Positions 26,197-26,501 of a DNA stretch of 26,681 bases are shown here, one piece after another. Below the pieces are notes generated by a model. That model worked only from the letters and a program-made list of their open reading frames with translations. It was not told where the DNA came from and ran no database searches. Made by a program: the position numbers and the translations under genes. Numbering within the stretch: position 1 is the stretch's first letter; each line of letters begins with the position of its first letter. The stretch lies in the IMG/VR virus record IMGVR_UViG_2718217859_000002. The stretch is one strand, 5' to 3'. The stretch comes from a virus. Taxonomy: Duplodnaviria; Heunggongvirae; Uroviricota; Caudoviricetes.

Positions 26197-26208
26197 TGAC
26201 CGTAAAAT

Positions 26209-26490
26209 TCGCGAAAAGTGTCAAGTCAGGCCGTCTGCCGGGTTGACACTTTACACTCTGAACGCGAAAAAGTGTCAACCTCGCTGTAAACCCCGCCGTT
26301 ACTGGCTTTGCGCCAGATTTACCACGTCAAAAAGCCGAAAAAATCGCGAAAAGTGTCAAGTTGCCATGCTTAGAAATGCTAAGGTTTGATAAGGTTTTTC
26401 GCGAAAAAGTGTCAAGTGTGTCAACCTGCGATGTTAAGATTTGTTAAGGTCTTAAGCCGGAAAGTGTCAACCAGCCCCTAAGATTTCCTA
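26209..26490. repeat. composite repeat array: five direct and one inverted copy of (CGCG)AAAAGTGTCAA(C/G), three followed by TAAGnTTTnnTAAGGT-like elements
   Basis: Copies near 26211-26225, 26243-26252 (inverted), 26264-26280, 26346-26360, 26401-26426 and 26460-26472. Confidence 0.7.
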
Positions 26491-26501
26491 AGGTGTAAAT
26501 C

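Follow-up and report, generated by a model that had tools for sequence, protein, structure and literature searches.

A Nu1-like winged-helix gene and its downstream array of probable cosB-type boxes: a candidate packaging-specificity module in an Escherichia coli phage satellite

The stretch of DNA analyzed here (the window: all 26,681 nucleotides of IMG/VR virus record IMGVR_UViG_2718217859_000002) carries at its right end a gene for a 174-aa protein, an array of short repeats, and an open reading frame (ORF) of 59 aa. The window is 100% identical to the chromosome of Escherichia coli OkiPb01676. An island begins within it at about 13.6 kb, inserted beside tRNA-Gly, and encodes, in order, an integrase, an AlpA-like helix-turn-helix (HTH) protein, AntA/B, an Icd-like protein, DUF4222, a D5/P4-type primase (19278-21050), ProQ/FinO, and PerC. 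There follow four morphogenesis-like genes, the 174-aa gene, the array, the 59-aa ORF, and variable cargo, which in the window is SieB. The same architecture characterizes phage-inducible chromosomal islands (PICIs) of Gram-negative bacteria, some of which carry PerC alleles (PMC6092414; PMC11773190). The island agrees with these in both gene content and gene order, and the window is, by its sequence, an E. coli phage satellite of the PICI type. Of 5,426 complete E. coli genomes, about 170-190 carry the island family.

The array (26215-26499) occupies the gap between the 174-aa and the 59-aa ORFs (Table 1). It contains six exact copies of AAAGTGTCAA, one of them inverted, at 26215, 26243 (minus strand), 26269, 26350, 26406, and 26461, in boxes 1 to 5 and box 7; every exact copy in the 26.7-kb window is confined to the array. 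With up to one mismatch allowed, AAAGTGTCAA occurs nine times in the window against an expectation of 2.84, a count reached by none of 100 shuffles. Three TAAGNTTTNNTAAGG elements (TAAGnTTTnnTAAGG type), at 26380, 26435, and 26479, compare with an expectation of 0.16, and again no shuffle in 100 reached the observed number. These TAAG elements alternate with the boxes in the right half of the array only. The original prediction, made from the letters of the sequence, had described just this combination of six boxes, one inverted, with three TAAG-type elements; its tally had left out a seventh copy of the core, GTGTCAACC at 26418-26426, and two degenerate GTGTAAA/TTTACAC copies, at 26250-26256 and 26493-26499. 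Among 25 distinct copies of the array from E. coli and E. ruysiae, invariant columns make up 80% of the boxes, 52% of the spacers, and 68% of the adjacent coding sequence, and just 2 of 229 circular shifts of the box mask equalled the conservation of the boxes themselves. The repeat array is real and lies beyond chance expectation.

Table 1. The 174-aa gene, the elements of the repeat array, and the trailing ORF, in window coordinates.
Feature	Position	Strand	Description
174-aa protein gene	25672..26196	+	Nu1/TerS-type winged helix 1-44, disordered linker 45-56, alpha/beta C-terminal domain
Box 1	26215..26224	+	AAAGTGTCAA, 5' extension CGCGAA; starts 19 nt past the 174-aa stop codon
Box 2	26243..26256	-	Inverted composite TTGACAC+TTTACAC; inverted pair with box 1
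Box 3	26269..26278	+	AAAGTGTCAA
Central non-repeat element	26295..26325	+	GCCGTTACTGGCTTTGCGCCAGATTTACCAC
Box 4	26350..26359	+	AAAGTGTCAA
TAAG element 1	26369..26395	+	CTTAGAAATGCTAAGGTTTGATAAGGT, half-sites ~10 bp apart
Boxes 5 and 6	26406..26426	+	AAAGTGTCAAGTGTGTCAACC, two neighbouring boxes
TAAG element 2	26435..26456	+	TAAGATTTGTTAAGGTCTTAAG
Box 7	26461..26470	+	AAAGTGTCAA
TAAG element 3 and degenerate GTGTAAA box	26479..26499	+	Overlaps the ribosome-binding site (Shine-Dalgarno) of the 59-aa ORF
59-aa ORF	26502..26681	+	Ends YQWKKPDRPRR; homologous small ORF in L236 and EcCICFT073

The protein encoded next to the array has homologues spread over the Enterobacterales, almost always annotated as hypothetical, and a literature search by six of its accession numbers found no mention. 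An AlphaFold model (predicted local distance difference test, pLDDT, 89) joins a winged helix at residues 1-44 through a disordered linker at 45-56 to an alpha/beta domain at 60-170. Residues 1-42 (MLMSKAEYAKHxGVSRQTVYDWIxKGExxMSGxKIDVEATE) are nearly invariant even where overall identity falls to 35%, while the remainder diverges. This N-terminus, residues 1-42 only, matches phrog_57, a family of the small terminase subunit TerS, at E 3.7e-7, and the best phage matches of the protein are the Nu1-type TerS proteins of two cos phages, Serratia phage BZS1 and Citrobacter phage phiNP, so that the earlier label of a Nu1-like winged HTH (wHTH) protein is supported. Homology over the full length of a small terminase, including its oligomerization region and the region that binds the large subunit TerL, was not found, as the likeness to TerS ends with the N-terminal 43 residues.

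The boxes are not peculiar to this island. We searched viral contigs for the hallmark inverted pair AAGTGTCAA-N15-45-TTGACACTT, and eight viral-contig loci (L157, L191, L195, L196, L213, L220, L225, and L231), together with an E. coli chromosomal island (L236; NZ_CP104681, locus 9001-10198), have cosQ, cosN, 7-9 boxes, and a TerS-like gene, in that order. Several of these loci carry int, primase, and PerC, which makes them satellites, here called sister satellites, and L236 has the same backbone as the window's island; no description of them was found in the literature searched. The sister cosQ reads GGGTCCyTCC and the sister cosN (G/A)CATTGCGCGCC, equal to the annotated 12-nt cohesive end of BZS1 (cosL, GCATTGCGCGCC). 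The cosQ-cosN stretch of the sister satellites is of helper type: that of E. coli prophage L235 is nearly identical, and so is the cohesive end of BZS1. The boxes of the sister satellites, TTGACAC/GTGTCAA/TTTACAC, match those of the window exactly, and the composite TTGACACTTTACAC of box 2 is among them. The 15-mer TTGACACTTTACACT of box 2 recurs unchanged as the first R cluster of the sister cos sites, and TTGTTAAGGTC of TAAG element 2 is also found between the R clusters of L236. The sister gene product, of 186-195 aa, has an N-terminal TerS-like domain; hhalign shows homology between the first 43 residues of the 174-aa protein and the L236 protein (Prob 96%, E 4.6e-9), and the C-termini are unrelated. 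The protein of the L195 type is a full phrog_57 TerS (residues 1-180, E 2.7e-23) with a DNA-binding domain unlike that of phage TerS.

Box sequence and recognition helix change together. In BZS1, phiNP, and E. coli prophage L235, which has a gpA-type TerL, 7-9 boxes of another sequence, GGTAACA, follow that same cosN and sit before and within a Nu1-like terS, and in these three a helix of the form FA(R/K)LHGVSRKTVTxW is paired with the GGTAACA boxes. In the sister proteins and the 174-aa family, the helix YA(K/E)HxG(V/M)(S/T)RQxxYxW is paired with GTGTCAA boxes. On the strength of these pairings we assign the GTGTCAA box, as R element, to a clade of Nu1-like wHTH domains. The array also has the cosB feature of several R boxes for a Nu1-type wHTH, judged by box identity and by covariation with the helix through which it would be bound, and in nine sister loci boxes of just this sequence stand between cosN and the TerS-like gene. 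The covariation of box and helix and the linkage of gene and box make it very probable that the array consists of cosB-type R boxes (core GTGTCAA, variant GTGTAAA) bound by the Nu1-like winged helix of the 174-aa protein.

The linkage extends well beyond E. coli. In Escherichia, Pantoea, Rouxiella, Raoultella, Buttiauxella, and Scandinavium alike, the wHTH gene is accompanied by GTGTCAA boxes downstream of it, and the pairing persists across unrelated replicases and different cargo. The replicase in the Rouxiella, Pantoea, Raoultella, and Scandinavium islands is of the Zn-ribbon/Toprim/DUF927 kind, not D5_N/DUF5906/Pox_D5. Because the boxes are present with unrelated replicases, the array tracks the 174-aa gene and not the replicase. 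Within the array, the position of box 1 is kept in the Rouxiella, Raoultella, Buttiauxella, and Pantoea islands, and the central element is partially conserved across genera, with a core, (G/A)TTACTGG(C/A)TTTGC, common to E. coli, Pantoea, and Raoultella. Pantoea stewartii ATCC 8199 has four copies of the wHTH-family gene at separate loci (L129, L130, L135, and L137), among which retention of the box array varies. An exact 10-bp insertion (..gg(a/g)(t/a)ggttaagt..) is present in TAAG element 1 of L005, L031, L086, L112, L123, and L126; it adds one TAAG half-site with the spacing of about 10 bp kept, which suggests that the TAAG elements act by helical phasing, whether through bending or cooperative binding.

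Outside the islands, blastn of the array, and of a sister cos region, against 50,697 phage records gave no match, and a scan of the viral contigs with a 14-nt motif returned mostly single chance matches and copies of the island itself. Some environmental contigs do carry 15-19 GTGTCAA/GTGTAAA boxes (L155 at 10055-11960, and likewise L169, L179, L186, and L208; also L166 at 3944-4349), and in L155 three boxes lie just upstream of an operon of terS-like (133 aa) and terL-like (463 aa) genes. No homologue of the 174-aa protein was detected in these large-array contigs, and another family of DNA-binding domains may therefore read the same box.

The place of the gene within the island bears on its role. 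At the right end of the PICI EcCICFT073 lie cos1, rppA, an inverted cos2, and a 93-aa ORF ending YHWKKPERLRR; at that of L236 lie cos, the TerS-like gene, and a 62-aa ORF ending YQWKKPAPRR. The 174-aa gene occupies the rppA slot of EcCICFT073, upstream of the same small-ORF family. This synteny with EcCICFT073 and L236 puts the 174-aa gene in the slot of an experimentally defined packaging-redirection module, in which the helper TerS is bound by Rpp and redirected to the cosB that the PICI itself carries (PMC6739421). The family of small basic-tailed ORFs (..Y/HxWKKPxRxRR before the stop codon) closes the packaging module in three PICI types, EcCICFT073 included. Its loci are 26502-26681 of the window, L236 10010-10198, L238 (CFT073) 3374-3655, and L129 about 10850-11030, and its only matches are to two phrogs without an assigned function, phrog_7271 and phrog_1561.

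Upstream of the 174-aa gene lie four genes (h195, DUF2213, h111, and h345; 22959-25662) homologous to the Rac-like phage vB_Apl-pPE4, hereafter pPE4. The products of h195 and DUF2213 together make up pPE4 gp46, a scaffold/protease-like protein, split in two, while h111 and h345 match the baseplate-hub proteins gp58 and gp59 (72-74% amino acid and about 81% nucleotide identity); over the morphogenesis genes, amino acid identity to pPE4 runs from 53 to 74%. Baseplate genes are unusual in a PICI-type satellite and point to helpers like Rac-SA53 and pPE4. The phage pPE4 has a Terminase_2 TerS and a Terminase_6N TerL, of the headful kind, and no GTGTCAA boxes. Its TerS showed no relation to the 174-aa protein by hhalign. 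Similar terminase genes occur in 891 of 5,426 E. coli genomes, among them HNSQ2209, which is also an island carrier. In the window's own strain, a pPE4-like prophage is absent at the coordinate where a sibling strain has one, the only coordinate to which this result applies.

Marking the island for packaging by a helper terminase is the likeliest role of the array, although on these sequence comparisons it is an evenly balanced proposition, and we give neither more nor less credit to the view that gene and array together form the packaging-specificity module of a PICI-type satellite. Under this proposal a helper phage would induce the island and island DNA would replicate; the 174-aa protein would then coat seven to nine boxes on the replicated DNA, and its private C-terminal domain would recruit the helper terminase, so that island DNA is packaged over helper DNA. 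The phased TAAG elements would probably bend or organize the complex. Packaging might start in the style of a pac phage rather than by a sequence-specific nick, as suggested by the lack of cosN and cosQ (see below) together with morphogenesis genes from a Rac/pPE4-like headful phage; a headful helper would need no cosN, which would explain its absence. We regard the headful mode and the recruitment of terminase as tentative parts of the scheme, possible but not to be relied upon. Somewhat more doubtful still is its evolutionary form, in which a cos-derived Nu1-like domain and its R boxes would have been cut loose from cosN and the domain fused to a new C-terminal domain that recruits a headful (Terminase_2/Terminase_6) terminase.

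Several observations weigh against a packaging role. The original prediction had compared the array with the cosB-like arrays bound by small terminase subunits; the comparison is sound for the boxes, which in the sister cosB stand downstream of a cosN identical to that of BZS1, but it does not carry over to a cut site, to the order of gene and boxes, or to the protein beyond its first 43 residues. Neither cosQ nor a cosN of the lambda, P2, or BZS1 type was found within the array, in its vicinity, or at any other place in 14 islands. Searches of these islands by blastn-short with five cosQ-cosN queries gave a match to a box only, and searches for lambda cosN and P2 cos gave nothing near the array. 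The central element was considered as a diverged cosN, with 12/14 matches to TACGGGCATTGCGC, and was dropped, as the alignment fails to reach significance (p 0.03-0.17) and E. coli islands differ in the putative overhang. The array, as its sequence stands, is not a complete cos site. It also lies downstream of its gene, and most of its boxes have the opposite orientation to those of the sister cos sites. The C-terminal domain of the 174-aa protein showed no similarity to the oligomerization or TerL-binding regions of TerS, to RppC, or to solved or viral predicted structures: sequence searches of PDB with the protein, its family profile, and a sister protein found no TerS or Rpp match, and Foldseek of the protein against viral predicted structures found none at E <= 0.001. 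By structure comparison, the wHTH fold is equally common to Xis, Cox, BldC, and recombination directionality factor (RDF) regulators, which also coat repeat arrays. Finally, the helper assignment rests on one island variant, the others having different upstream genes with no family match.

In L096 and L109 a 12-mer, GCATTGCGCGCT, lies downstream of the array at a distance of about 400 bp. We judged it a chance match because it comes with no cosQ, is absent from the window's island, and has some 19 one-mismatch matches in other loci.

The cargo that directly follows the array varies among islands, and in some the breakpoint falls immediately after box 6 or box 7. Contents of this hotspot include the PARIS pair AriA/AriB (L126 3644-5600, in the O104:H4 outbreak strain 2011C-3493) and, among L122-L127, a 662-aa protein resembling prokaryotic Argonaute (pAgo) and SIR2 proteins in ABU 83972, a DUF4747 pair, and SieB. 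In L124, a deletion between boxes 5 and 7 suggests recombination between boxes.

An array of binding sites so placed might serve transcription instead, with the 174-aa protein acting as a TerS-derived transcription factor that would repress or activate through it the small ORF and the often defensive cargo, or regulate its own operon. The 59-aa ORF and the cargo directly follow the array on the same strand, and the array overlaps the ribosome-binding site of that ORF; every box holds TTGACA, a -35-like hexamer, on the minus strand; the fold is common to Cox, BldC, and MerR-type regulators; and UniRef names one Pantoea homologue 'Repressor', with some RefSeq records reading 'MerR family transcriptional regulator'. 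Cargo swapped in right after box 6 or 7 would inherit whatever control is exerted there. We nevertheless consider such an operator unlikely. A consensus scan of both strands detects no promoter within the array, the homologous small ORFs of the sister satellite and EcCICFT073 have no such boxes upstream, the boxes of the sister elements sit in a bona fide cos site, and seven to nine sites over 280 bp exceed what an operator typically needs. Nothing was found in support of a related suggestion in the original prediction, that the array serves a late-gene activator. Less probable than an operator, though still worth stating, is a decoy, an interference element, or a relic: a cosB without a cut site, together with a TerS DNA-binding domain devoid of terminase functions, could titrate or block the TerS-like proteins of competing satellites or phages with GTGTCAA boxes, poison the helper TerS in the manner of Rpp, or simply be what is left of a former cos site. 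The absence of cosN and cosQ would suit this, as would the identity of the boxes with those of sister satellites in the same species, the anti-phage cargo of the islands, and a wing, IMSGxxIDVxA, that resembles gpA-type prophage TerS as for an Rpp-like mimic of the DNA-binding domain (PMC6739421). Against a relic, however, boxes, DNA-binding domain, and arrangement are strongly conserved over several genera; a pure decoy would need no well-conserved and well-folded C-terminal domain of its own.

Two further readings have little to recommend them. Short repeats in many copies, in a satellite with a P4-alpha-like primase, might form a replication origin or a cluster of iterons for the primase-helicase; P4 has a second iteron cluster, crr, distant from its ori. 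The island, however, has at least ten (AAC)TGTTCAC/GTGAACAGTT iterons at 21047-21324, directly 3' of the primase gene, in two sets around an AT-rich stretch at about 21150-21220, and their TGTTCAC core is one that we take to equal the P4 type I iteron TGTTCACC. Origins of Gram-negative PICIs have been described with this layout of iteron sets on either side of an AT-rich core (PMC6092414). By this layout the replication origin of the island is 21047-21324, apart from the array, which does not itself have two iteron sets, an AT-rich core, and a place 3' of the primase. The same boxes occur with the unrelated DUF927 primase family and none lies near the primase in the window, so an origin within the array is disfavoured and extremely improbable. 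Hardly better is an array of the excisionase or RDF type, or an RNA hairpin or terminator formed from the inverted repeat of boxes 1 and 2, both of which we consider very unlikely. At least 1 kb separates the array from attR, and 12.5 kb from attL, with cargo that varies in between, and an AlpA-like gene already stands beside int. A hairpin would lack a U-tract, a terminator scan finds no terminator in the array, Rfam gives no match, and the direct copies farther downstream would go unexplained.

The finding bears on the packaging of the many 'type C' enterobacterial PICIs that have no recognizable terS, rpp, or cos. PARIS in the O104:H4 outbreak strain is one example of the defence systems, and PerC one of the virulence regulators, that such islands disseminate. 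A testable recognition code emerges, GTGTCAA/GTGTAAA with YAKHxGxSRQxxYxW versus GGTAACA with FA(R/K)LHGVSRKTVT; three protein architectures share that code, and a candidate helper type can be proposed. If the fusion of a cos-derived domain to a new C-terminal domain is what happened, one satellite lineage would shift between mechanistically different packaging helpers by swapping the adaptor domain alone, and the conserved boxes would permit cross-packaging or competition between satellite types. A packaging role, if true, would extend the paradigm of Rpp and of the TerS of Staphylococcus aureus pathogenicity islands (SaPIs) to a module without cos, and would provide a marker for annotating islands and for engineering transducible cassettes.

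Among known systems, Rpp and cosB of EcCICFT073 (Fillol-Salom et al. 2019, PMC6739421) are also built on a small satellite-encoded protein that has a Nu1-like wHTH at its N-terminus and goes with R elements specific to the satellite, unlike those of the helper, and are placed after the origin and morphogenesis genes and before the ..WKKPxRxRR small ORF. The 174-aa protein has the Rpp-type N-terminal wHTH that mimics the DNA-binding domain of TerS. In contrast, it has no usable similarity to RppA (blastp against a 12-sequence database aligned just 25 aa of the HTH, at E 0.017), it has no match to RppC by phmmer or by profile search against PDB (6hn7 included), and its C-terminal domain is alpha/beta in the AlphaFold model, as against a helical dimerization helix in Rpp. 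By sequence, and by C-terminal fold as modelled, it is not a member of the Rpp family. EcCICFT073 moreover keeps lambda cosQ/cosN (L238 2559 and 3298), whereas the window's island has none and has its array downstream of the gene.

With the lambda-type cosB (gpNu1; BZS1, phiNP, and L235) the array shares 7-9 short boxes in both orientations over about 250 bp beside a Nu1-type wHTH gene, and a box sequence that covaries with recognition-helix residues. The phages differ in having GGTAACA boxes after cosN and before or into terS, and a full TerS beside a gpA-type TerL; the window's island has neither cosN nor TerL, and the DNA-binding domain alone is in common. Sister satellites such as L236 come with identical boxes, the helix YAKHxGxSRQxxYxW, the PICI backbone (Icd-like, primase, PerC), and the trailing small ORF, but they have the helper's cosQ/cosN, boxes upstream of the gene, and 186-195-aa proteins with other C-terminal domains. 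The TerS of SaPIs is a full homologue of the helper TerS, whereas the 174-aa protein shares nothing detectable with the Terminase_2 TerS of its candidate helper. The proposed likeness to SaPI TerS-SP and pac is one of function: in both, a specificity subunit supplied by the satellite would steer the terminase of a headful helper to a site near its own gene (PMC6739421).
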